A stretch of DNA of 43,944 bases, taken from contig JAWAET010000001.1 in the NCBI GenBank assembly GCA_038891175.1, positions 1-43,944 of the forward strand. The letters are read 5' to 3'. Within the stretch, counting starts at the first letter, position 1; the number at the start of each line of letters is the position of its first letter. A program made the position numbers and the translations under genes. Shown here in pieces: positions 29,979 to 42,163 of this stretch. The stretch is from Candidatus Pacearchaeota archaeon. Its GTDB lineage: Archaea > Nanobdellota > Nanobdellia > Pacearchaeales > GW2011-AR1. The notes under the pieces were generated by a model that saw only the letters and a list, made by a program, of their open reading frames with translations, had not been told where the DNA came from and did not search any database.

Positions 29979-30065
29979 ATTCTTAATGAGTCTCTTAAAT
30001 TTAAAAAGTTAACGAAAAAAGAAATTTTTGAAAGAAAGAATAAATAAAAAAGAGTAACAAAAAGA

Positions 30066-30252
30066 CCTTGTTTAAACAGCTGTTTAAATTTTAAACATAA
30101 AATTATCCTTGTTTAAACAGCTTACAAAAAAAAGTAGGCTGTTTAAATAAAAAATGAAAAAAAGCAAAATATAAAGAATTTTATCGTCGAAAAATTTAGA
30201 TGTTGGCTGTTTAAACGCTCTGTTTAAACAGCTGTTTAAATTTTAAACAGGC
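30066..30252. repeat. Iteron array built on the palindrome GTTTAAAC / AAACAGCTGTTT (at least 9 copies), including an exact 29-nt duplicate
   Basis: TGTTTAAACAGCTGTTTAAATTTTAAACA occurs at 30069..30097 and 30221..30249. Further copies lie at 30111, 30141 and 30209. The array sits in the divergent intergenic region upstream of 30308. Confidence 0.8.
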
Positions 30253-30307: not shown

Positions 30308-30928
30308 ATGATGTTTTGGATATTTAAGAGAAAAAAAGAGATAGAAAGAATTGAGGAAGAAACAAAAAAATCTTTTGAAAAGGTTAGAGAAGATCTTCTA
30401 AAAGTCGGAAAGTGGATAGAGCATTTCGACGGAAAAAATAAAAGAGTTGAAGAAGAAATTGAGAGTATAAAAGAAAAAATAGAAAGTATTGAAAAGAGTA
30501 TTGAAGAGCTAAAAGGTAGCTTTTCAATAATATCAAAGGAGCCGTTTAAACAGAGACAAACGGCTGTTTATAAACAAACAGAGGCTGTTGATGTTCAAAC
30601 AGCTGTCCAAACGGCTGTTCAAACAGGCATTTTAGACAAACTAACTCTGAGTGAGAGGGCTATAATTTTTGCTCTGCTTCATTCAGACATGAAATTGAGT
30701 TATGAAGATTTAGCAGTAATGTTAGGGAAGGATAAAAGCACAATAAGAGGACAAATAAACGCTATAAAGCAGAAAAGTGAGAGTTTGATAAAGGAAATAA
30801 GAGAACCTAGCGGAAAAAAGAGAGTGTATATCCCGCAAGAAATAGCAAAAACGCTAATAAAAAGCGTAAAAGTGAGAGTTAAAAAAGAAGAAGAAAATGA
30901 AAAAAAAGAAAAAGAAGAAGAAAATTAA
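30308..30928 (+). CDS. Coiled-coil, QT-rich linker and winged-helix DNA-binding protein
   Basis: The N-terminal heptad-like region is EEEIESIKEKIESIEKSIEELK and the linker is KQRQTAVYKQTEAVDVQTAVQTAVQTG. The wHTH is LSERAIIFALLHSDMKLSYEDLAVMLGKDKSTIRGQINAIKQK, followed by an acidic/basic tail. Confidence 0.6.
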   Translation: MMFWIFKRKKEIERIEEETKKSFEKVREDLLKVGKWIEHFDGKNKRVEEEIESIKEKIESIEKSIEELKGSFSIISKEPFKQRQTAVYKQTEAVDVQTAVQTAVQTGILDKLTLSERAIIFALLHSDMKLSYEDLAVMLGKDKSTIRGQINAIKQKSESLIKEIREPSGKKRVYIPQEIAKTLIKSVKVRVKKEEENEKKEKEEEN

Positions 30929-30997: not shown

Positions 30998-31675
30998 TTA
31001 AATTTCCCTTAGTTTAAGAATTGTTTGAAGTGAGACAACTTTTTTTAGATCATCAGAAATCTTTAAAAAAACAGTTTTATTATCTGGCTTAATTTTGATT
31101 AAAGGGATGCCTTTAGCAATTATTTTGTTCGTATAATCTCGTATAGAAGACTCTGTAAGATTTAAATAATTAGCCAAAAGGCGATAAGATATTTCATTAA
31201 TTCCTTGTTCCTCTAGAGAGTAAATAGTAGAAAAAAGCTGCATCTCTTTATTCGTGAGTCTTTTAAATTTTAAACGAATCTCTTTTTTTGCGGAATCGAG
31301 AGAGTCTAAAAGAGTCTTAACTCTTTCAAAGTCATAAGAAGAATCATTATTATAAAAATTTGCCTGTTTGTCTGTCTGTTGGTTTGTCTGTCTGTCTGTT
31401 GGTTTGTCTGTTGGAACCCCTTTATTTCCTGTGGAAAAATAAAAATTTTGAGATTTTAACCCCCTTATTTCCTGTGGAACTGCTGGAAAATGTGCCGAAT
31501 TATCTGTCGAATAAGGAAAATATGCCGAATTCCCTATCTCTTTATGCTGATTTTTTAAAAGTTCTGACATATTCCTTTCTATTGTAGATATCCTCTCATT
31601 CAACTTAAATATTTCTTCTTTCAAAAAAGAGATTTCTTCTTTTACTTTAGAAAACGCCTCTTTTATAGGGTCCAT
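30998..31675 (-). CDS. Coiled-coil, repeat linker and winged-helix DNA-binding protein (architectural paralog of 30308..30928)
   Basis: The N-terminal coiled coil is KEEISFLKEEIFKLNERISTIERNMSELLK. The repetitive linker is NSAYFP/NSAHFP, PTDKPTDRQTNQQTDKQ. The wHTH is LTNKEMQLFSTIYSLEEQGINEISYRLLANYLNLTESSIRDYTNKIIAKG. Confidence 0.55.
   Translation of the reverse strand: MDPIKEAFSKVKEEISFLKEEIFKLNERISTIERNMSELLKNQHKEIGNSAYFPYSTDNSAHFPAVPQEIRGLKSQNFYFSTGNKGVPTDKPTDRQTNQQTDKQANFYNNDSSYDFERVKTLLDSLDSAKKEIRLKFKRLTNKEMQLFSTIYSLEEQGINEISYRLLANYLNLTESSIRDYTNKIIAKGIPLIKIKPDNKTVFLKISDDLKKVVSLQTILKLREI
31416..31479. repeat. Two direct ORB-like (origin recognition box) elements embedded in CDS 30998..31675
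   Basis: ACCCCTTTATTTCCTGTGGAA (31416..31436) and ACCCCCTTATTTCCTGTGGAA (31459..31479). The reverse complement is TTCCACAGGAAATAA(A/G)GGGGT, a dyad plus G-string. The 15-nt ACCCCTTTATTTCCT is identical to the box at 41695. Confidence 0.6.
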
Positions 31676-31728: not shown

Positions 31729-32052
31729 TTAACTTATATTAGAAGATTTTTCTTTATAAATCTCGTAGAGACTATTTGATAATCTCCATTTTATTCTTTT
31801 TTTGTAATCTCTTCCAAAAGAATTCTTGTTAATCTTAATAACAAAATGATTCTTTTCTAAGTCTATAAGAATTTTTTTAGTAAACTCTTCATCTCTCGCA
31901 ATCTCCTGTGAGATCTCTTTAGTAAAAAAAGATTTTGGATAATTTGTAAATAAAAAAAATAAAATCTGTTCTTTTATTTTTTCAATCTTATCAGAAGATA
32001 TAAAAGGCATAAGAAATAAAAAGACGAGAGTTTTATATAATTTTCTATTCAA
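31729..32052 (-). CDS. Small winged-helix protein (putative transcription regulator)
   Basis: KEQILFFLFTNYPKSFFTKEISQEIARDEEFTKKILIDLEKNHFVIKI is wHTH-like. It is divergent and back-to-back with lhr. The true start may be the internal Met (MPFISS), since a TATA-like TTATATAA for lhr lies in the first codons. Confidence 0.45.
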   Translation of the reverse strand: MNRKLYKTLVFLFLMPFISSDKIEKIKEQILFFLFTNYPKSFFTKEISQEIARDEEFTKKILIDLEKNHFVIKINKNSFGRDYKKRIKWRLSNSLYEIYKEKSSNIS

Positions 32053-32053
32053 A

Positions 32054-34579
32054 ATGGAAGAGAAATTAATAAGAGAGAGTATGGACTTCTTAGTAAGAGA
32101 ATGGTTTTTTAATAGATTTAAAGAGCTTTCATTAACACAAAAAAAGAGTTATATGAGCATAGCAGAAAGAAAGAATACGCTAATAAGTGCTCCTACAGGA
32201 GGAACTAAGACACTAAGTGCCTTTTTGTATATAATAAATTATTTAATAACTCTTGCTAAAAAAAATGAACTTGAAGAAAAAATTTATGTAATTTATTGTT
32301 CCCCGCTGAAAGCACTTACAAATGACATATATGTAAACTTAATTAATCCTCTTAAAGAAATAAGAAAGATAGCAGAAGAGAGAGGGATTTCTTGTCAAGA
32401 AATAAGGATAGGAGTGAGAACAGGAGACAGCTCTCTAAAAGAAAGAAAAGAGCATGTAAAAAAAACACCCCACATTTTGTTAACTACACCAGAAAGTCTA
32501 GCAATATTGCTTAACTCAAGGTTATCTGAAAAATTAAAAGGTACAGAATTTATAATAATTGATGAGATCCATTCATTAGCAGAAAATAAAAGAGGAGTTC
32601 ATCTTTCTTTAACATTGGAAAGGATAGAAGAAGAATTAGAAACGAAACTTACGAGAATTGGACTATCTGCAACAATATCTCCTTTAGAAGAAATAGCAAA
32701 GTTTTTAGCCGGACATGAAAGAGAGTGTGTTATAGTTGATGTTCCTTTAGAAAAAAAGTTTGATTTGAGTATTGTCTCTCCCTATGAAATAGATGAAAGA
32801 GGAAATTTAATAGAAAAAAAAGAAGAAGCTTTAGATGAAATAATAAGAAGTCATAAAACAACATTAATATTCACTAATACAAGATCTGCTACAGAAAGAG
32901 TAGTAAAAAACCTTAAAGAAAAATTTCCCGGAAAGTATATTACGAATATAGGAGCCCACCACTCCTCTATGTCAAAAGAGCATAGAAGAGAAATAGAAGA
33001 GAAATTAAGAAGAGGAGAGTTAAAAGCAGTGGTTTCTTCAACATCTTTAGAATTAGGAATAGATATAGGGTACATAGATGTTGTTGTTCTTTTAGGAAGT
33101 CCAAAATCAGTATCAAGAGCCTTACAAAGAGTGGGAAGAGCAGGACACAAACTACACGAAACAGCAAAAGGAATTTTTTTTGTTTATGATTTTGACGATT
33201 TGGTAGAGTGTAGTATAATGATAAAAAACTCAAAAGAAAAAAAGATAGACAGGGTGAATATCCCGAAAAACTGTTTAGATGTTCTAGCCCAACAAATTTT
33301 GGGAATGGTTTTAAAAAAAGAATATCTAATAGATGAATTATTTAAAATAATAAGAAAAAGTTACTGCTATAAGGACTTGAGTAGAGAAGATTTCTATTCT
33401 GTAATATCTTATCTCGCAGGAGAGTATAACTTAGAAAACAATAAAGTTTATCCAAAAATAAAGGTAGAAGGAAACTCTTTAAAAAAAGTAGGAAAGCTCA
33501 CAAAAATGATTTACTTAACTAATGTTGGGACAATACCTGATGAAAGTTATGTAGAAGTTTTAACAAGAGATAAAAAGGAAGTGGGAAAAATAGATGAAGC
33601 ATTTCTTGAAAAATTAAAAAAAGGAGACGTTTTCTCATTAGGAGGTAAATCTTATGAGTTTAGGTATACGAGAGGTATGAAGGTTTATGTGGACTTATCT
33701 TCAAAAAGCCCGAATATACCTTATTGGTATTCCGAAATATTGCCTTTGTCGTTTACCACAGCAGAATCCATTCAGAAATTTAGATATCTCCTAAAAGAAA
33801 AAATGGAAAAAGAAAAGGAAAAAGATAAAATAATAAGATTCATAGAAGATTATTGTCACATAGACAAAAAAAGTGCAGAATTAATTTTAAGATATTTTGA
33901 AGAACAAAAAAAAGTATCTATTATACCTACAGAAAAGGAAATTTTAATAGAACATTTTTTTGAAGAAAAAAACTTTTTCGTATTTCATTGTGTTTATGGA
34001 AGAAGAATTAACGAGGCTCTGTCAAGAGTAGTAAGTTATTCTCTCGCAAAAGAAAAAAAGAAAGATTTAGAAATAGGAGTTAATGATAATGGATTTTATT
34101 TAAGTAGTAAATTCTTAGATTATGATAGCATAGAAAAAGCATTAAAGAAAATAAGGAAAGAAAATATAAGAGAGATAATAGAAAAAAGTTTAGAGAATAG
34201 CGAAATATTGAAAAGAAGGTTTAGACACTGCGCTGTTAGAGGATTAATGATACTGAGAAATTATAAGGGAAAGAAAAAAAGTGCCGGTGTTCAGCAAGTT
34301 TCTTCACATTTTCTTTTGAGCAGTATAAAAAAGTTGACAAATGAGTTTCCAATATACAGAGAAGCTAAAAGAGAAATAATAGAAGATTACATGGATTTAA
34401 AAAATTTAGAAATGATAATAGAGAAAATAGAAAAAGGAGAAATAAGAATTATAAAAAAAGATATAAAGATGGCAAGTCCTTTTGCTTTTAATATAATAAA
34501 TCAAACACACAAAGATTTTATAAAAGTTGAAACAAAACAGGAGTTTATAAAGAGATTATTAAAAGAAAATGAAGTATAA
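32054..34579 (+). CDS. lhr: Lhr-type (Lhr-core) DEAH-box ATP-dependent helicase
   Basis: Motif I SAPTGGTKTL, motif II IIIDEIHSL, motif III LSATISP, motif VI QRVGRAGH. The winged-helix and domain-4 region extends to 841 aa. Confidence 0.85.
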   Translation: MEEKLIRESMDFLVREWFFNRFKELSLTQKKSYMSIAERKNTLISAPTGGTKTLSAFLYIINYLITLAKKNELEEKIYVIYCSPLKALTNDIYVNLINPLKEIRKIAEERGISCQEIRIGVRTGDSSLKERKEHVKKTPHILLTTPESLAILLNSRLSEKLKGTEFIIIDEIHSLAENKRGVHLSLTLERIEEELETKLTRIGLSATISPLEEIAKFLAGHERECVIVDVPLEKKFDLSIVSPYEIDERGNLIEKKEEALDEIIRSHKTTLIFTNTRSATERVVKNLKEKFPGKYITNIGAHHSSMSKEHRREIEEKLRRGELKAVVSSTSLELGIDIGYIDVVVLLGSPKSVSRALQRVGRAGHKLHETAKGIFFVYDFDDLVECSIMIKNSKEKKIDRVNIPKNCLDVLAQQILGMVLKKEYLIDELFKIIRKSYCYKDLSREDFYSVISYLAGEYNLENNKVYPKIKVEGNSLKKVGKLTKMIYLTNVGTIPDESYVEVLTRDKKEVGKIDEAFLEKLKKGDVFSLGGKSYEFRYTRGMKVYVDLSSKSPNIPYWYSEILPLSFTTAESIQKFRYLLKEKMEKEKEKDKIIRFIEDYCHIDKKSAELILRYFEEQKKVSIIPTEKEILIEHFFEEKNFFVFHCVYGRRINEALSRVVSYSLAKEKKKDLEIGVNDNGFYLSSKFLDYDSIEKALKKIRKENIREIIEKSLENSEILKRRFRHCAVRGLMILRNYKGKKKSAGVQQVSSHFLLSSIKKLTNEFPIYREAKREIIEDYMDLKNLEMIIEKIEKGEIRIIKKDIKMASPFAFNIINQTHKDFIKVETKQEFIKRLLKENEV

Positions 34580-35416: not shown

Positions 35417-38400
35417 TTAAGAAAACAAACTTTTCAAATCAGTTTGCTTTTCCGTTTCTTTTCCAAAAATACTCTCTATATACATTTTAGTTAACTCTAA
35501 AGATTCTTTTGTATAAGAAGGGATTTCATAATTGTACGCAAGTTTCAAAGCATACTCTAAATATTTCTTTATGGCGCCTTCAGAGACTGTAAAAATGATT
35601 CTTCCATTACATTTATAACAAGAACCTTTGAGAGGAGGTCTTCTATACTTCTCGTTGCACATAACACAACGAAATTCTTGTTGAGAGAATTTTCTAAGAT
35701 TCCCTCTTATATCTCGAATAAAATGTCTTTCTAAAATCAGTCTTGCAACATCTGAAGAGTCTACTGCTCTTATTTTATTTACTAACTCCATCTGCTTCTC
35801 AACTTTATCTTTCATAGAAGGCAATGTTTTATAAGAAGAATTGAAAATTCCTATATGAATACTAGAAGTATTATGAGTAAACCCTATTTCTTCAAAAGAG
35901 TTTCTTTTTTCTTTTAGGAAGTTTTTTACGTTGTCAAATTTAATTTCGGAGGAATGCTTTCTTTGTTCAGCTAACCTATATAAATCTAAAGAGTATTTCC
36001 AACAAGTTTCTAAGTCTAAAATTTGATCGTCTACTTCTCCTTCTCTTATTCTAGTATTAAGAACTAAAGGAGCGTCTTGTGTTCCTCCTCTATGAGAAGG
36101 GAGATATTTTATAGAAAAGTTAAGAAGGACATCTAAGAGTAACATAATAGCAGCTTCGTCTCCATCACAGTCCCTTCTCATTGCTGCATGCATAAAAGGA
36201 CTCGCCAATAGTCCTTGCATCTTAGTAAAACCTATAATTCTTCCTACTACTCCTGCACAATTGTGAGGAGCCATACAAACTACTAAATGCCCAACCAAAT
36301 CTTCCTTTGTTTTTAAATTAAAAAAAGGAGGAAGATTATAAAACTTTTCTAAAAGTTCGTCTATAAATTTAGATACTCTAAAAAAGACTTCATCAGCTTT
36401 TTCATCTTTAGAAGAAGGACAAGAAGGAAGAAGAACGTCATGAGGCATTAATGTGACAATTTGGTTTTCGTCTACTAAATCATTACCGAAAGAGTCTTTC
36501 AAATAACCTAACTCTCTTAATTTATAAATAGGCGTTCCTATTTCTGAAGGTCTGAAATGGGTAAGAGGAATCTCTGTAGCATCATAACGAATTGTTCCAT
36601 CTTTGTTGACAGTTAAATTGTATTTGGCTCTTAAAATTCCTTTTGCAATATTTTCTACATCGTGAAACATATTTGATGTTCCTCTTACTCCTTTAACAAG
36701 AGGGGGGATTTCTTCTTTAGAAAGATTCAAAAGAGAAACTGCTTTCTCAAAATAATCTTTAATATAAACTTTTCTTTTATTGAAAGGAAAACACGATGAA
36801 TGATTGCATTTTTTGTCTAAATAGTCTCCACATTCATTACAAAAAAAGAAACGACGAGTTTCTTTACCACAGTAGATACAATAAGGATAAATAGACTCTT
36901 TTTTACAAGAATCACAAAAATAAAGAGAAAATTCTGCATTTACGTATCCTTTAGTATAGGCCTCGTTAATGCTCCTAAATCTTCCTCCCTCTTCTCCGAT
37001 ACTAAAAAGACAATTTGGACTACCGACAAGCTTTCTTAATTTAGCTTTTTCTGGCCTACCCATTCTTGCACCAATAAAATCGCCTGCTTTATCTTTGATA
37101 ATAAATTCTGAATTTTCATTGATAAAATCTAAAACTTCTTTATTTGTTTCTAAGAATTTTTCTCTTAATGTTTTGCTTTTTTCTTTAAAATTTTCCTTAG
37201 ATAAGCCAAGATTTACAAAAAAAGCCTCGGTTTCTTTAATAATTACATTTTCAAGAAAAACATCATGTTCTACACCTAAAAGTTCTAATGCTCTTTTTCC
37301 TAAAGAAAACTCTTGTCTAAAAGAAGAAGAAAAAGGAAGAACAAGGTTTTCATTAAAAGAACCTTTTGAAATCCAAAGAAGGAGATTAGAGAATTGTTCA
37401 GAGGTTATTTGAGACCAAAAAAAGATAAAAGAAGGATGAAGAGGTATTTGATACTTCTTACTTATTTCTATTGCTTCAGAGAGAGAGGGTTTAAATTCGA
37501 GAGGTTTAGAGATAAAATTTTTAAGTTTTTCATCGATTTGAGAATTTGTTTCTTTAATTTTCTCTTCCAATTCAAAGGCCCACCATTCTTCAACAAATCC
37601 GGGTTTAAGTAATTCTGAATTTCTATTAACGACGTCTCCTAAAGAAAAAAGTATATCTCCTAAATAGATTATTTCTGACACTTCATTATAAATATTTTTT
37701 GACTCTTCTAAACTTTTTATCTTCTTAACAGAACCATTTTTAAATTTAACAATAGGCCCCTCGATTAAATCACAAGGAGTAACAACACAACCTTTAGAAG
37801 GTCTTTCTAATTTTAATTGAGTTCCAGAGGAAATAAAGGAGTTAGAAAGAAACATCGTCGCTGGATGAATGGAAGTTGCTGAAAAACCAGAAACTCTTGA
37901 TCTCCCATAACGAAATCTAAAAGCACCGCTCCTAGAAGGATGGCCAAAAATAGGTCTTCCTGCTACAATGTCTTTTATATAAGTAGGAGTTACATCTTTG
38001 TCTCCTTTTTCTCTTTTTTTGTGAATTTCTACATATTTTTCTAAAAAGTTCCAATCGGACAAAGCAAAACCTTTTTTTCTTAAATTAGTAACCATACGAA
38101 GAATTTTTGCAGCTTTTTGTGCTAATCCTTCCGCAAAAACTAAACAAAATCCTCCTCTTATGTAATTAGTTTCTATTCTCTTTAAATCTTTAAAATTAGA
38201 AACTTGTTTATCTTCTGTTGGATCTCCATTTATTTGAATTGGGATATTTCTTGCCAAAAAAAGAATTTCTTCTTCTGTAGGAAAATATTGAAGATTGGTA
38301 ACTCTCTCATGATAGTCTACAATTTCCGTTAAAGTTCTTTTTATTTCTTCTTCGGTAGGATCATATTTTGCATAACCAAAAATCTCTCTTAAATAATCTA

Positions 38401-38902
38401 TTATAATCAAAGAGAAAGCAGCACCCGTTCCTCCTGCACTTCTTATAGGGCCTGAAAAATAAGGAACAAAATATTCCTCGCCAGAAGAAGTTTTATTTGT
38501 TTTTAAATGAGTAAATCCTTCTAAAGGAGAAGAAACAACTCCTAAAGTTATATAAGCAAAACCTACTCTTATTCCAGCATCTATCGCTTCTAGCAAGCTT
38601 CTAAACTTACAAAATTTTTCTTTAGCTATTTCTTCTGCTATTTTTAAAGAAACAGCAGGGTCTAATTTTCCATATTCTTCTTCTAGTTCTAAGATTCTTT
38701 TAGGAATAGAAGAGTCTTTCATTTGAGGGTAAATTGTAGAAATCAAACCGACGGACTTTTCAGCAAGGCTTGAGGCTAAAGGGACTTCAACTTCTTTAGA
38801 TAAATCTAAACCTTTGCTTCTAGCTAAAGAAGCAATTTTATACTCTTTCATCACATTTTCTAAAAGATTAGAAAAATATTTTTCAGTGAAGTTAAAGCTC
38901 AT
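35417..38902 (-). CDS. polC: DNA polymerase II (PolD) large catalytic subunit DP2
   Basis: Catalytic block AAMRRDCDGDEAAIMLLLD and the zinc modules CDSCKKESIYPYCIYCG, CNECG, CVMCNEKYRRPPLKGSCYKCNG. I place the start at the internal Met (MSFNFTEKYF, ATG at 38902), overlapping the DP1 stop. The 25 codons upstream in the listed ORF overlap DP1. Confidence 0.9.
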   Translation of the reverse strand: MSFNFTEKYFSNLLENVMKEYKIASLARSKGLDLSKEVEVPLASSLAEKSVGLISTIYPQMKDSSIPKRILELEEEYGKLDPAVSLKIAEEIAKEKFCKFRSLLEAIDAGIRVGFAYITLGVVSSPLEGFTHLKTNKTSSGEEYFVPYFSGPIRSAGGTGAAFSLIIIDYLREIFGYAKYDPTEEEIKRTLTEIVDYHERVTNLQYFPTEEEILFLARNIPIQINGDPTEDKQVSNFKDLKRIETNYIRGGFCLVFAEGLAQKAAKILRMVTNLRKKGFALSDWNFLEKYVEIHKKREKGDKDVTPTYIKDIVAGRPIFGHPSRSGAFRFRYGRSRVSGFSATSIHPATMFLSNSFISSGTQLKLERPSKGCVVTPCDLIEGPIVKFKNGSVKKIKSLEESKNIYNEVSEIIYLGDILFSLGDVVNRNSELLKPGFVEEWWAFELEEKIKETNSQIDEKLKNFISKPLEFKPSLSEAIEISKKYQIPLHPSFIFFWSQITSEQFSNLLLWISKGSFNENLVLPFSSSFRQEFSLGKRALELLGVEHDVFLENVIIKETEAFFVNLGLSKENFKEKSKTLREKFLETNKEVLDFINENSEFIIKDKAGDFIGARMGRPEKAKLRKLVGSPNCLFSIGEEGGRFRSINEAYTKGYVNAEFSLYFCDSCKKESIYPYCIYCGKETRRFFFCNECGDYLDKKCNHSSCFPFNKRKVYIKDYFEKAVSLLNLSKEEIPPLVKGVRGTSNMFHDVENIAKGILRAKYNLTVNKDGTIRYDATEIPLTHFRPSEIGTPIYKLRELGYLKDSFGNDLVDENQIVTLMPHDVLLPSCPSSKDEKADEVFFRVSKFIDELLEKFYNLPPFFNLKTKEDLVGHLVVCMAPHNCAGVVGRIIGFTKMQGLLASPFMHAAMRRDCDGDEAAIMLLLDVLLNFSIKYLPSHRGGTQDAPLVLNTRIREGEVDDQILDLETCWKYSLDLYRLAEQRKHSSEIKFDNVKNFLKEKRNSFEEIGFTHNTSSIHIGIFNSSYKTLPSMKDKVEKQMELVNKIRAVDSSDVARLILERHFIRDIRGNLRKFSQQEFRCVMCNEKYRRPPLKGSCYKCNGRIIFTVSEGAIKKYLEYALKLAYNYEIPSYTKESLELTKMYIESIFGKETEKQTDLKSLFS

Positions 38903-40391
38903 CTTCAGAAAAATCCAATATTTTAATTTCTCTAGTTTTAAGGTTGAAAAGAGGAACTTTACAAGGATCTGGCTCATGACCTATCTTTTCTTCAAAAGGA
39001 GTTTTTGATTGCCAACAAGAAGAAGCTATAAGGAGGATATTATTATAATAAGAAATTTCAGGTCTATGTTGATCTCCGGTGCAAACTATATCTGGCACTT
39101 CTTCTATAACAGAAAAGTCTTTTCCAGGAGAAGGTATGTAGTCAAAATCTCCATGAGGAGAAGAAAGCAGTCTTCTCTTTAAAAATTCCTTAGTTACTCT
39201 TGCAGGAAATTTATGACCATACTTTGTTCTTAATTCTTCTATTCCTTCAATAACTCCGTGCATTGCTGCTCCGTGATAAAGAAGAATTTTAAAAGAGTTT
39301 TCTATTTCAACTAAAGAAGGATTAGAAACTAAGTAAACATTCTCCATATTATACAAAAAGGGAGCCCATTGTTTATCTATGGGTGGTTGTGGTTCTCCCA
39401 CCCATACCGCGTCGTGCTGACCTGGGCAAATTATTATTTTTATATCTTTTCTTAATAAAGAAAGATATTCATAAAGTTTTTTATATTGATCAGTAATGTT
39501 TTTTATAGAAAGAAATCTTTCTTGATCGGGATAAACTCCTACTCCATCAATTGTATCTCCTACAATAAAGAGATATTTAACTTTTTTTGCAATTTCTTCT
39601 TTTCCATTTTCTAAATTTAACCACTTAATAAATTTAAGAAAATTTTTTTCTAAAAACATAGAAGAGCCTACATGCAAATCAGAAGTAACTGCAATAAAAA
39701 TATCTTCATTTATTTTTTTTCTCGAAGGAAGAAAGATATCTGGCCAGAGAATATCATTTCCAAATAAAAAATCTTTGTTACCAGAAACTTTCATAAGAAC
39801 AACATCATCCAAAAGAACGCTTTTTGCTTTTTCAAAAACTTCAGGTTTGGAAGAAGAAAATAAGACTTTTGTTTTTCCTGTTAGGTCTTCTACATCGAAA
39901 ATAATATTATTATTTTTTGAAATTTTTTTATCTAAAACAGAAACAATAATAGAAGAGTTTTTAGAAGGAACTAATTTCCTTATTGAAGAAAGATTTTCTA
40001 TATTTCTTTGGAGGAAAATATTTCTTATTTGTTCATAACGAGCACGAAAGTAATCAACAAAATCAGAAATAGAAACTTTTTTAGAAGAAATTTTAAAAGA
40101 AAGAAGTATTTTTATAGAGTTATTTTTAAGAGGAGATTGTTCTTGTCTAGAAGAGAGAGGATTATTTGAAAAAAATTTTTTTTCTTCTTCAGAAAGAAAA
40201 AGAGATATTTTATCTAAATTATTAAGAAAATCTTCTTTTTTAAGAAAATTTTTTTTGAGATTTTCAAAAAGAAAGAGAATTATTTTTTTTGAAGATTCTT
40301 TGTTAAGATTTTGTAAAAGAGAAAAGAGTTCCTTTTCTAACAAGATATTTTTTTCTAAACAAAAATAAAAAAGTTCTTTTTCCTCTTTCAT
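38892..40391 (-). CDS. polB: DNA polymerase II (PolD) small exonuclease subunit DP1
   Basis: Calcineurin-like phosphoesterase motifs AVTSDLHVGS, IVGDTIDGVG, CPGQHD and CTGDQHRP. It lies between cdc6 and DP2. Confidence 0.9.
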   Translation of the reverse strand: MKEEKELFYFCLEKNILLEKELFSLLQNLNKESSKKIILFLFENLKKNFLKKEDFLNNLDKISLFLSEEEKKFFSNNPLSSRQEQSPLKNNSIKILLSFKISSKKVSISDFVDYFRARYEQIRNIFLQRNIENLSSIRKLVPSKNSSIIVSVLDKKISKNNNIIFDVEDLTGKTKVLFSSSKPEVFEKAKSVLLDDVVLMKVSGNKDFLFGNDILWPDIFLPSRKKINEDIFIAVTSDLHVGSSMFLEKNFLKFIKWLNLENGKEEIAKKVKYLFIVGDTIDGVGVYPDQERFLSIKNITDQYKKLYEYLSLLRKDIKIIICPGQHDAVWVGEPQPPIDKQWAPFLYNMENVYLVSNPSLVEIENSFKILLYHGAAMHGVIEGIEELRTKYGHKFPARVTKEFLKRRLLSSPHGDFDYIPSPGKDFSVIEEVPDIVCTGDQHRPEISYYNNILLIASSCWQSKTPFEEKIGHEPDPCKVPLFNLKTREIKILDFSEDEL

Positions 40392-40396
40392 GAATA

Positions 40397-41611
40397 TTAG
40401 AGTGAAAGATTATTTTTTAAAACTTCTTCTACTTTCTTTAAAACAGGAGGAGGAATCGCTAATTTTATTTCTCTTGTTCTTCCATGCCTACCTTTTGAGA
40501 TAACGATTGCATTAATAATTCCCAACATATCAAATTCTGCAATTATATCGGAAACTCTTCTTTGTGTTAAAACTTCTAATTTTAATTTTTTACAAAATTG
40601 TTGATAAAGATTGAAAACATCTCCTGTAAAAAATGCTTTTGAACGCTCATTTTCTTTTTGTTTGGAAAGAGTAATAATAGAATATAAAACTAATTGACAT
40701 TGAATAGGTTGATTTTCAACTAAATCGATAATTTTATCTTTTTCTATTTTTTCATTAGCTAAATCTAAATATTCTATAGAAATAAAGTTTTTACCATCTC
40801 TTTCGGCAAGTTCTCCTGCAATTCTTAATAAATCTAAAGCTCTACGAGCGTCTCCGTGTTCTCTTGCAGCTAAAGCAGCGCATTTTGAAATTACTGAGTC
40901 ATCCACCACATTTTCTTTAAAAGCTTCTTTACATCTTTCTCTCAAAATGTCTTGTAATTGTAAGGCATTGTAAGGAGGGAAAAGAATTTCTTCTTCCCCT
41001 AAAGAACTTTTAACACGGGGATCTAAATTGTCTAAAAAAGTAACATCATTAGAGATTCCTATAATAGAAATTTGAGCATTGGAAAGTTCTGAATTAAGTC
41101 TTAGAAGACTATAAAGAAAGTTATCAGATATTTTCTTAACGGCTTGGTCAATCTCGTCTAATATTAAAACAACTATTTGTTTTTTTGAATCTATAACTTC
41201 AACAAATTTGGAATAAAGAGCCTGAGTAGGAAGTCCTGTAATAGGTACTTCTTCTCCAAATTGTTCTAAAAGAGCAGCAAGTATTCTATACTCGGTATCG
41301 GAGACTTTTTTAAGTTTACAATTAAGATACTCTATTTTTAAAGAAGAATTTGTTTCTTTTGCTTTGTTAAGAAGTTCATCTTTCACATAGAGAACTGAAA
41401 GAGTTTTTCCAGTCCCTGTTTTCCCATAAAGAAAAACATTACTTGCTTTCTCCCCTCTCAAAGTAGGAGCTAAAATAGAAGCTAAAGTTTGAATTTGTTT
41501 CTCTCTGTGGGGAATAGATGAAGGACTATAATTTGCTTGAAGAACTTGCTTATTCTTAAATAAAGAATTTTTTAGTGCATTCTCAAAAATATCTTTTATG
41601 TTGACACTCAT
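40397..41611 (-). CDS. cdc6: Orc1/Cdc6 replication initiator
   Basis: Walker A YGKTGTGKT, Walker B VLILDEID, sensor and winged-helix C-terminus. I place the start at the internal Met (MSVNIKDIF, ATG at 41611). The listed 23-codon hydrophobic extension is probably not translated, and TTTATATATTTC lies about 20-30 nt upstream. Confidence 0.9.
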   Translation of the reverse strand: MSVNIKDIFENALKNSLFKNKQVLQANYSPSSIPHREKQIQTLASILAPTLRGEKASNVFLYGKTGTGKTLSVLYVKDELLNKAKETNSSLKIEYLNCKLKKVSDTEYRILAALLEQFGEEVPITGLPTQALYSKFVEVIDSKKQIVVLILDEIDQAVKKISDNFLYSLLRLNSELSNAQISIIGISNDVTFLDNLDPRVKSSLGEEEILFPPYNALQLQDILRERCKEAFKENVVDDSVISKCAALAAREHGDARRALDLLRIAGELAERDGKNFISIEYLDLANEKIEKDKIIDLVENQPIQCQLVLYSIITLSKQKENERSKAFFTGDVFNLYQQFCKKLKLEVLTQRRVSDIIAEFDMLGIINAIVISKGRHGRTREIKLAIPPPVLKKVEEVLKNNLSL

Positions 41612-41908
41612 AAAAAAGAAAGAAAGAAAGAAATATATAAATTTAAGTATACTAAAAAAAGTAGTAATAATTTTTTTCAAAGGAAAAAAGAGAGACCCCT
41701 TTATTTCCTTTAGAAATATTTAAAAAGAAAAGAAAGAAAAAAAATTTTTTTATTTTATTTAAAAGTTTTTCTATAATTTAATATATACTTTTTCTTTTTT
41801 TCGATTTCTTTCTTTTAGAATTATTTTCTCCACGAGAAATAAAGCTGTAGGAGTTTTTTTTAACTGAAAAATACAAAAATTTATAAACTCTTTATTTTTT
41901 TCTTTCTT
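41612..41908. other. Predicted chromosomal replication origin (oriC): inverted ORB-like boxes flanking an AT-rich unwinding element
   Basis: ACCCCTTTATTTCCTTTAGAAA (41695..41716) and the inverted, more degenerate TTTCTCCACGAGAAATAAAGCTGT (41825..41848) bracket about 108 nt of almost pure A/T. The region lies immediately upstream of cdc6-DP1-DP2. Confidence 0.65.
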
Positions 41909-42163
41909 ATGGAAAAGATACCTTACAAATCTTTTTTAGGAAAGTTAGTTGTAACTAAAGATGGAAGAAGATTGGGTCTTGTGAAAGATATTACTTTCGA
42001 AGTTAAAACAGGTGAAGTGATTAATCTCATTTTAAAAGATTTAACTGAACATGCAATTAATCTTTCCATTGAAAAAACAAAAAATAAAGAAGCTCTTATT
42101 CCTTTTCATTCAGTTATTGCTATAGGTGATTTTATAGTAGTAAGTGAAGAAGATTTTTTTTAA
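41909..42163 (+). CDS. PRC-barrel domain protein
   Basis: LGKLVVTKDGRRLGLVKDITFEVKTGEVINLIL...IPFHSVIAIGDFIVV is a typical small archaeal PRC barrel. Confidence 0.65.
   Translation: MEKIPYKSFLGKLVVTKDGRRLGLVKDITFEVKTGEVINLILKDLTEHAINLSIEKTKNKEALIPFHSVIAIGDFIVVSEEDFF

Follow-up and report, generated by a model that had tools for sequence, protein, structure and literature searches.

ORB-type boxes kept by DNA-level selection within a winged helix-turn-helix gene close to the cdc6-linked origin of Pacearchaeota and related archaea: candidate accessory Orc1/Cdc6 sites

The window analyzed here is the entire 43,944-bp contig of a Candidatus Pacearchaeota metagenome-assembled genome (MAG), with a GC content of ~28%, and its subject is a pair of boxes resembling archaeal origin recognition boxes (ORBs) that are embedded in the coding sequence (CDS) of a 225-aa winged helix-turn-helix (wHTH) gene, here called gene X (30998..31675, minus strand; NCBI locus tag QW273_00230). 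The boxes match ORBs in motif, are under selection at the DNA level, keep a fixed spacing and strand, are linked to cdc6 and to the adjacent replication origin (oriC), and lack the architecture of an origin. We consider that they are probably accessory ORB-type Orc1/Cdc6 sites in coding DNA near oriC that are maintained by DNA-level selection, and we infer both the binding of Orc1/Cdc6 to them and its effect. The original prediction, made from the same stretch, had offered three options for these boxes, namely a second origin, the origin of an integrated extrachromosomal element, and Orc1/Cdc6-mediated control at the gene X locus, among which the third appears the most plausible.

Re-reading of the sequence reproduced the boxes with their coordinates, their direct-repeat arrangement 43 nt apart and their position in the linker-coding part of the gene. 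Box A, the downstream one in gene X (31416..31436, minus strand), reads TTCCACAGGAAATAAAGGGGT and is translated in frame as S-T-G-N-K-G-V, and box B, the upstream one (31459..31479, minus strand), reads TTCCACAGGAAATAAGGGGGT and is translated in another frame as V-P-Q-E-I-R-G; the plus-strand letters are ACCCCTTTATTTCCTGTGGAA and ACCCCCTTATTTCCTGTGGAA, respectively. The two are minus-strand direct repeats separated by an AT-rich spacer of fixed length (22 nt, 31437..31458, minus strand, 91% AT), and the open reading frame (ORF) is translated over them as ...HFPAVPQEIRG...FYFSTGNKGVP.... Both contain TTCCACAGGAA, where TTCC-ACA-GGAA forms a perfect 4+4 dyad, and each is laid out as a TTCC-N3-GGAA dyad followed by AAT, three variable spacer nucleotides and then a G-string (GGGGT or GGGGGT). 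Because 43 mod 3 is 1 and the boxes are thus read in different frames, the repeat exists at the DNA level and not at the protein level. Allowing ≤3 mismatches, the 21-mer was found four times in the window versus 0.01 times expected from shuffles, and none of 100 shuffles reached four; the matches lie at 31416(-), 31459(-), 41695(-) by cdc6 and 37822(+) in the PolD DP2 gene.

The conservation of the boxes was assayed in 80 loci, each taken from another GTDB species genome among 453 that encode a relative, and gene X could be extracted in 77 loci when the window itself is included; all genomes are MAGs, and two seed patterns were used for locus retrieval, one of them being the ORB-encoded peptide. 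At least one box with ≤2 mismatches to TCCAYAGGAAAYNNNGGGGT was found in all 77 genes, on the coding strand every time, and the dyad core TTCC ... GAA was invariant throughout. The box-anchored nucleotide alignment was almost invariant as TCC-A(C/T)A-GGA-AAT-NNN-GGG-GTT-CCA-ACA-GAC, with Ser encoded by TCC in 76/77, Gly by GGA in 71/71, Asn by AAT in 70/76, Gly by GGG in 77/77 and Val by GTT in 72/75 genes, and, past the G-string, Pro by CCA in 69/70, Thr by ACA in 74/74 and Asp by GAC in 67/67. The GGG codon is retained in every gene despite the AT-richness of the genomes (median locus AT 68%), and the sole free codon (GAA, AGG, CAA, AAG and others) coincides with the spacer between dyad and G-string. 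The ESSIRDY motif of the wHTH domain, whose residues are invariant, served as an internal control, and there Ser was encoded by TCT (22), AGC (19), TCC (17) and other codons, and Arg by six codons. Across columns, the major-codon fraction was 0.96 in the box and following repeat (11 columns) versus 0.57 in 49 other conserved columns (Mann-Whitney p=3.5e-7). Since synonymous codons are frozen there and varied elsewhere, the peptide "motif" of the linker is a by-product of a nucleic-acid constraint.

The same alignment bears on the converse explanation that the STGNxGVPTD peptide is itself functional and its resemblance to an ORB coincidental. The peptide is nearly invariant and occurs in 263/264 homologs retrieved by a profile search independent of the peptide seed, as a functional peptide would; however, it is only in the box and repeat that synonymous codon choice is frozen, the ORB spacer being the one free codon, the 21-mer is also kept in a second frame where it encodes an unrelated peptide, and the region is predicted to be disordered. 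A constraint on the protein only is hardly probable, and was rejected by the codon analysis against the internal control columns. An RNA-level element in the mRNA (a structure, a small RNA target or a recoding signal) would fit the nucleotide conservation equally, and the boxes always lie on the coding strand, but the linker RNA was less stably folded than its shuffles (z=+1.76), a search of Rfam at E≤1 found nothing but one spurious miRNA match elsewhere, and the ORF is open in one frame in all 77 loci, so that no sign of frameshifting was found. As the same motif is also present in both orientations in non-coding oriC DNA, an RNA function is very improbable.

The spacing of the boxes is constrained as well. 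Two boxes are present in 32/77 genes and a single box in 45/77, and in 29 of the 32 two-box genes the spacing is exactly 43 nt with the upstream box in the other frame (frame 2). The two-box state is found among close and distant homologs alike and is therefore probably old. Supportively, in an independent metagenome scan for box pairs, in which gaps of 10 to 40 nt were allowed, the spacing was 43 nt in 54 of 63 pairs, including all 45 that could be verified as gene X, and none of the nine pairs with other spacings was in gene X. Four metagenome contigs (L113, L117, L128 and L157) carry tandem ORB pairs that belong to the same sequence class but have a 30-nt spacing and lie outside the gene X context, reading TTCCATAGGAAA...GGGGTGT(N9)TCTCCACAGGAAA...GGGGT; these pairs probably mark the origins of other AT-rich archaea or of their replicons.

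Judged by their sequence, the in-gene boxes appear to be of ORB type and of the same class as the boxes of the cdc6-linked origin. The Pyrococcus ORB oligonucleotides bound by Cdc6/Orc1 read TTCCAGTGGAAAT...GGGGGG on the equivalent strand, with 'TTCC' and 'GAA' perfectly conserved (PMC1904270). In the window, the 297-bp spacer between cdc6 and the gene of a PRC-barrel protein (41612..41908) is a textbook archaeal origin, with an ORB on the minus strand (41695-41715), a weaker inverted ORB on the plus strand (41828-41848) and 86% AT between them. The minus-strand box reads TTCTAAAGGAAATAAAGGGGT, with two mismatches to the in-gene 21-mer; the originally noted identity of 15 nt (AGGAAATAAAGGGGT) between the two is correct, and so is the observation that the in-gene dyads are the better ones (TTCC-ACA-GGAA versus TTCT-AAA-GGAA). 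The initiator gene orc1/cdc6 (40397..41611, minus strand) was identified by the Pfam domains Cdc6_C, Cdc6_lid and AAA and by the NCBIfam equivalog NF001625 (513 bits versus a 501-bit cutoff); it is a reported single-copy core gene in Nanobdellota, and its product is the presumed binder of all these boxes.

The same core was obtained when k-mers were counted de novo in 48 cdc6-PRC intergenic regions of relatives without use of the in-gene pattern: the top non-AT words were TCCATAAGAA(A), TCCATAGGAA, CCTTTATTTC and ATAGGGTCAC, also listed as TCCATAAGAAA, hence the origin boxes of the relatives share the in-gene core. These origins carry inverted sets of boxes around AT-rich DNA, with both orientations in 27/48 oriC regions, the minus-strand boxes lying ~80-100 nt from the cdc6 start and the plus-strand boxes toward the PRC gene. 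In six of them (L060, L066, L067, L071, L077 and L078), two minus-strand ORBs upstream of cdc6 are 98-99 nt apart, which suggests a second fixed-spacing arrangement within true origins. A further locus, L160, whose Orc1 is 55% identical, holds two copies of TTCCATAGGAAATGAAGGGGT, an identical 21-mer pair, between cdc6 and DP2, and no gene X homolog was found in its 12-kb locus. In the literature searched, ORBs in Pacearchaeota or Woesearchaeota were not described, and ORB sequence strings used as queries gave unrelated papers.

The specificity of the motif was evaluated by scanning 1.29 Mb of related loci, comprising ±10 kb flanks, at ≤2 mismatches. The 159 matches fell into gene X (113), oriC (38), Lhr (4), DP2 (3) and one position elsewhere, which lies beyond the neighboring HTH gene in L067; 40 shuffled loci yielded a single match. 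Thus, within these flanks the box does not occur at many unrelated loci, being concentrated in gene X and oriC. The look-alike in the window at 37822-37842(+), TTCCAGAGGAAATAAAGGAGT, with two mismatches, is located inside the PolD DP2 gene (35417-38977, minus strand) and was considered as an intragenic ORB of the kind known from dp1 in Thermococcales; it was rejected as a coding coincidence, as the homologous residues N-S-F-I-S-S-G-T and their codons vary freely among 37 relatives. DP1 yielded no conserved box. The matches in Lhr are an ORB-like TCTCCAGAGGAAATnnnGGAGTT on the coding strand of four genomes (L007 at 7619, L008 at 7661, L020 at 7400 and L033 at 7653).

Gene X is also tied to the origin by gene order. 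The complete 10-kb flank upstream of gene X is available for 50 genomes, and in 49 of them it contains orc1/cdc6 at 1.1-9.1 kb from gene X (median 4.8 kb), always divergent from it; the distance from the gene X box to oriC ranges from 1.4 to 10 kb among genomes. The usual order, with arrowheads for the strand, is DP2(<), DP1(<), cdc6(<), oriC, PRC(>), then (... MPE(<), Lhr(<)), wH107(>), gene X(>) and HTH206(<), where wH107 and HTH206 are the flanking genes encoding a 107-aa winged-helix protein and a 206-aa HTH protein. In the window, the order runs from HTH206 (30308-30928, plus strand) through gene X and wH107 (both minus), the Lhr helicase and its phosphoesterase (both plus) to PolD DP2 and DP1 (both minus), orc1/cdc6 (40397-41611, minus), the 297-bp spacer and the PRC-barrel gene (plus). 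The block DP2-DP1-cdc6-oriC-PRC (35417-42163) has the opposite orientation to that in the closest relatives (L001 and L002) and in the 49/50 genomes. The inversion spans the origin and places oriC 10.2 kb from the boxes with PolD in between.

This synteny speaks against the proposal that the boxes belong to a plasmid or virus that became integrated and whose origin makes use of the host's initiator. Captured elements are often the source of secondary origins in archaea (PMC4010727), and generic boxes of this type were found in 27 IMG/VR contigs, which were uninformative, with no Orc1 or gene X homolog near the boxes. The extended element, however, had 0 matches in IMG/VR viral contigs. Gene X and its neighbors are syntenic beside cdc6-PolD in 49/50 species genomes, the gene X homologs spread over 855 clusters at 50% identity, the composition profile has no GC step at the locus, and the genes on either side (Lhr, PolD and orc1) have housekeeping roles in replication and repair. 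An integrated element is therefore not supported and extremely improbable.

Some observations would agree with a second, independent chromosomal origin inside gene X: the in-gene ORBs are near-consensus and better than those of oriC, a 22-nt stretch of 91% AT separates them, and several origins per chromosome are common in archaea (PMC4010727). Its architecture, however, is missing. In Sulfolobus oriC1, the inverted ORB2 and ORB3 flank an AT-rich DNA unwinding element (DUE) and loss of either abolishes activity, one Orc1 monomer being bound per box with a defined polarity (PMC12141716). This inverted arrangement around a DUE, which canonical origins of archaea require, is replaced here by direct or single boxes: the 113 in-gene boxes share one strand, as a single box in 45/77 genomes and as direct pairs in the other 32, and no inverted partner box was seen near gene X among the 159 matches of the scan of related loci. 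Nor is the surrounding DNA suited to unwinding. The ±100 nt around the box are 62% AT versus 78% in oriC spacers and 68% in the loci overall; within the window the linker is 64% AT versus 86% for the DUE at 41716-41835, and the best 80-nt stretch is 77.5% AT in the gene versus 92.5% at oriC. Moreover, a canonical oriC with a single-copy initiator is only 1-10 kb away. The cumulative GC/AT skew of the 44-kb window follows gene orientation, and at this scale no origin can be located from it. With boxes on one strand only, no AT-rich unwinding element and so many single-box genes, a second origin is not supported, and we regard it as improbable.

The host gene itself encodes a long N-terminal helix, a disordered linker and a C-terminal MarR-like wHTH domain. 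Its 2103 homologs at E≤1e-3 are all from DPANN archaea of the Pacearchaeota/Woesearchaeota/Nanoarchaeota type, align over the full length with ~45-60% identity and form the 855 clusters mentioned above. The AlphaFold (AF2) model consists of a helix (residues 3-44), a disordered segment (44-110, predicted local distance difference test score <50) and a helical wHTH (112-224), the last with weak Foldseek matches to MarR-type regulators; the domain and structure searches returned a generic MarR-like wHTH only and gave no support for a recognizable replication protein. Within the disordered segment, the alignment contains two near-invariant peptides, (V/L)PQEI(K/R)G and STGNxGVPTDKPTDRQTNQQTD, and these are exactly the ones encoded by the boxes and the repeat that follows.

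That repeat, an (ACAG)n or CCAACAGAC-type repeat (31359..31415, minus strand; TRF rows 31359-31414), adjoins box A on its 3′ side and is translated as PTDKPTDRQTNQQTDKQ. It encodes PTDK/TDRQ repeats and differs in length among genomes, and it is kept at the nucleotide level in these AT-rich genomes, with ACA in 74/74, GAC in 67/67 and CAG preferred. In 1.2 Mb, ACAGACAGAC was counted 222 times in gene X versus twice elsewhere, and GGGGTTCCAAC 64 times in gene X and 0 times elsewhere. A role as a further array for protein binding is conceivable.

Immediately upstream of gene X and on the same strand in the 77 loci lies wH107 (31729..32052, minus strand in the window), a 107-aa winged-helix gene with a weak EarA-like Pfam match that is a probable operon partner. 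The TTG start called for its ORF (32052-32054) abuts the divergent Lhr ATG and leaves no promoter space, and its relatives begin with MP(K/S)IS...; for these two reasons the true start is probably the internal Met (MPFISSDKIEK) ~42 nt downstream. No ORB was found in the promoter of the wH107-gene X operon, where a different motif, AAACCGAATAA, is present instead. This motif is conserved ~10-40 nt upstream of wH107, just 3′ of a TTTAAA TATA-like box, in loci including L008, L011, L015, L016, L018, L019, L027, L029 and L079, and several further loci carry it inverted, as TTATTCGGTAT; the motif, a candidate operator, is unrelated to the ORB.

On the other side of gene X, the original prediction had pointed to an iteron array and combined it with the boxes into an origin-like module, a proposal that is not supported. 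The array (30060-30250) is made of copies of a 12-bp palindrome, CTGTTTAAACAG, situated upstream of HTH206, which encodes a coiled-coil plus HTH protein, and it shares no sequence with the ORB. Across 76 relatives, CTGTTTAAACAG with ≤1 mismatch reached 2.07/kb in the 400 nt upstream of HTH206, being present in 46/76 loci, and 1.13/kb inside the HTH206 CDS, versus 0.016/kb elsewhere, which corresponds to an enrichment of ~130-fold and ~70-fold, respectively. In the HTH206 linker (30544-30626 in the window), the palindromes take the form CTGTTCAAACAG where the frame would otherwise read TAA (V-Q-T-A repeats) and the exact form CTG-TTT-AAA-CAG where the frame allows. These palindromes look operator-like, a set belonging to HTH206 itself and unrelated to an ORB-based origin. 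Their outer half-sites TGTTT...AAACA may resemble the bacterial parS, which also lies inside the gene of its binder. Thus, both of the two convergent regulators carry candidate protein-binding motifs in their linker-coding DNA.

This local parallel introduces the chief rival of our favored explanation, in which the box is recognized by the wHTH protein of gene X or by wH107 in an autoregulatory manner, the same protein also binding the oriC boxes as an accessory factor. Several observations weigh against the assignment of the boxes to Orc1/Cdc6. HTH206, of the same architecture, has its promoter palindrome CTGTTTAAACAG in its own linker, and by analogy it may be a local rule that linker DNA holds the site of the protein it encodes. 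The 12-15 nt past the G-string (GTTCCAACAGAC...) are conserved as strictly as the box and are part of no known ORB, so another factor or function may be involved, and, like the (ACAG)n repeat, this GTTCCAACAGAC extension is unique to gene X. In the same genomes, the boxes at oriC show more degeneracy than the in-gene box (TCCATAAGAAAYCATAGGGTCAC), and it is unusual that the best 'ORB' of a region should sit away from the origin. The peptide seed, moreover, makes the sample somewhat enriched for genes having the peptide, a bias that cannot create codon invariance. Recognition by the gene's own product would also agree with a box that never leaves gene X in any genome examined. On the other hand, archaea without the gene X family have ORBs of matching sequence to which Orc1/Cdc6 binds, and the motif is cdc6-adjacent also in L160, where the 12-kb locus yielded no gene X homolog. 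The wH107-gene X promoter, with its AAACCGAATAA, has no ORB-like box, and the similarity between gene X and HTH206 is weak (E=0.013). We consider self-recognition rather unlikely.

Under the favored explanation, that of accessory Orc1/Cdc6 sites, the disordered linker would tolerate the peptides imposed by the boxes, STGNxGV in one frame and VPQEIxG in another. One Orc1/Cdc6 monomer may bind per box with the same polarity, and the 43-bp spacing, approximating four helical turns, would bring both monomers to one face of the helix. As there is neither an inverted partner nor an AT-rich unwinding element, firing as an origin is not expected; most likely the site would instead be an accessory locus for initiator binding, on that side of oriC where the PRC gene lies. 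Occupancy by the initiator could be coupled to transcription of gene X, with bound Orc1 either acting as a roadblock or being evicted by the transcription, and, as a compatible addition, the boxes might hold or titrate initiator near the origin. A function tied to gene X is favored because the box stays in this gene though it may lie anywhere between 1.4 and 10 kb from oriC.

A wider and more tentative reading, which we hold to be possible though doubtful, is that wH107, gene X and HTH206 form a lineage-specific replication-control module with cis sites written into linker DNA, the boxes serving as a datA-like, high-affinity sink or switch for the single Orc1/Cdc6 or as a docking site for the gene X protein in the role of an origin cofactor. 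If so, gene X transcription and initiator availability would control each other, and the HTH206 palindromes would follow the same rule, comparable to parS within spo0J. Pacearchaeota and Woesearchaeota belong, with their relatives, to a very large uncultured group with small genomes. The present locus offers a sharply defined 21-bp cis element in one or two copies at a fixed 43-bp spacing, near oriC and always in the same regulator gene; by inspection, it appears more strictly conserved than the oriC boxes, which differ visibly between genomes. It thereby gives a handle on the regulation of a single Orc1/Cdc6 that consists of a 64-bp fragment and one initiator protein. It would also be a case of natural dual coding, in which a putative protein-binding DNA site dictates the sequence of a disordered linker in two frames, with a bearing on how "conserved motifs" in disordered regions are read and on origin-prediction tools limited to intergenic DNA.

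Among known systems, the ORB/mini-ORB cluster of Thermococcales dp1, the gene of the small PolD subunit, is the nearest parallel: it lies in the CDS, is conserved across the order, and in Pyrococcus binds Cdc6/Orc1 both in vivo and in vitro, while the mapped initiation site is elsewhere (Matsunaga et al. 2007, PMC1904270). The gene X boxes are likewise within a CDS, a few kb from the cdc6-adjacent oriC and conserved across a clade. Unlike dp1, their host is a wHTH regulator on the other side of oriC, and they comprise one or two full ORBs without a mini-ORB cluster, located in the DNA of a disordered linker and read in two frames, in which the codons are frozen and the spacing is fixed at 43 nt; they are found in another clade, the DPANN Nanoarchaeota/Nanobdellota. 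In Haloarcula hispanica, an ORB cluster downstream of oriC2 is proposed to inhibit this origin (Wu et al. 2014, reviewed in PMC4010727), and it resembles the gene X boxes as a set of initiator boxes outside the origin core with a proposed role in modulating rather than firing; it differs from them in being described only as downstream of oriC2 and in the type of its G-string. With the canonical oriC1 of Sulfolobus, Pyrococcus and Aeropyrum, the boxes share the dyad plus G-string class and presumably the binding of one Orc1 monomer per box (PMC12141716). The gene X site is distinguished from oriC1 by its direct repeats or single box, the lack of a DUE and its location within an ORF. Bacterial cases with a related layout are the initiator-titration locus datA of E. 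coli, the lambda ori inside gene O and parS of B. subtilis inside spo0J, some of them high-affinity sites in the gene of their own binding protein or in linker-coding DNA. Although these involve different proteins in a different domain of life, so that the analogy is one of logic only, they too are initiator or partition sites that lie near an origin, within a CDS, or both.

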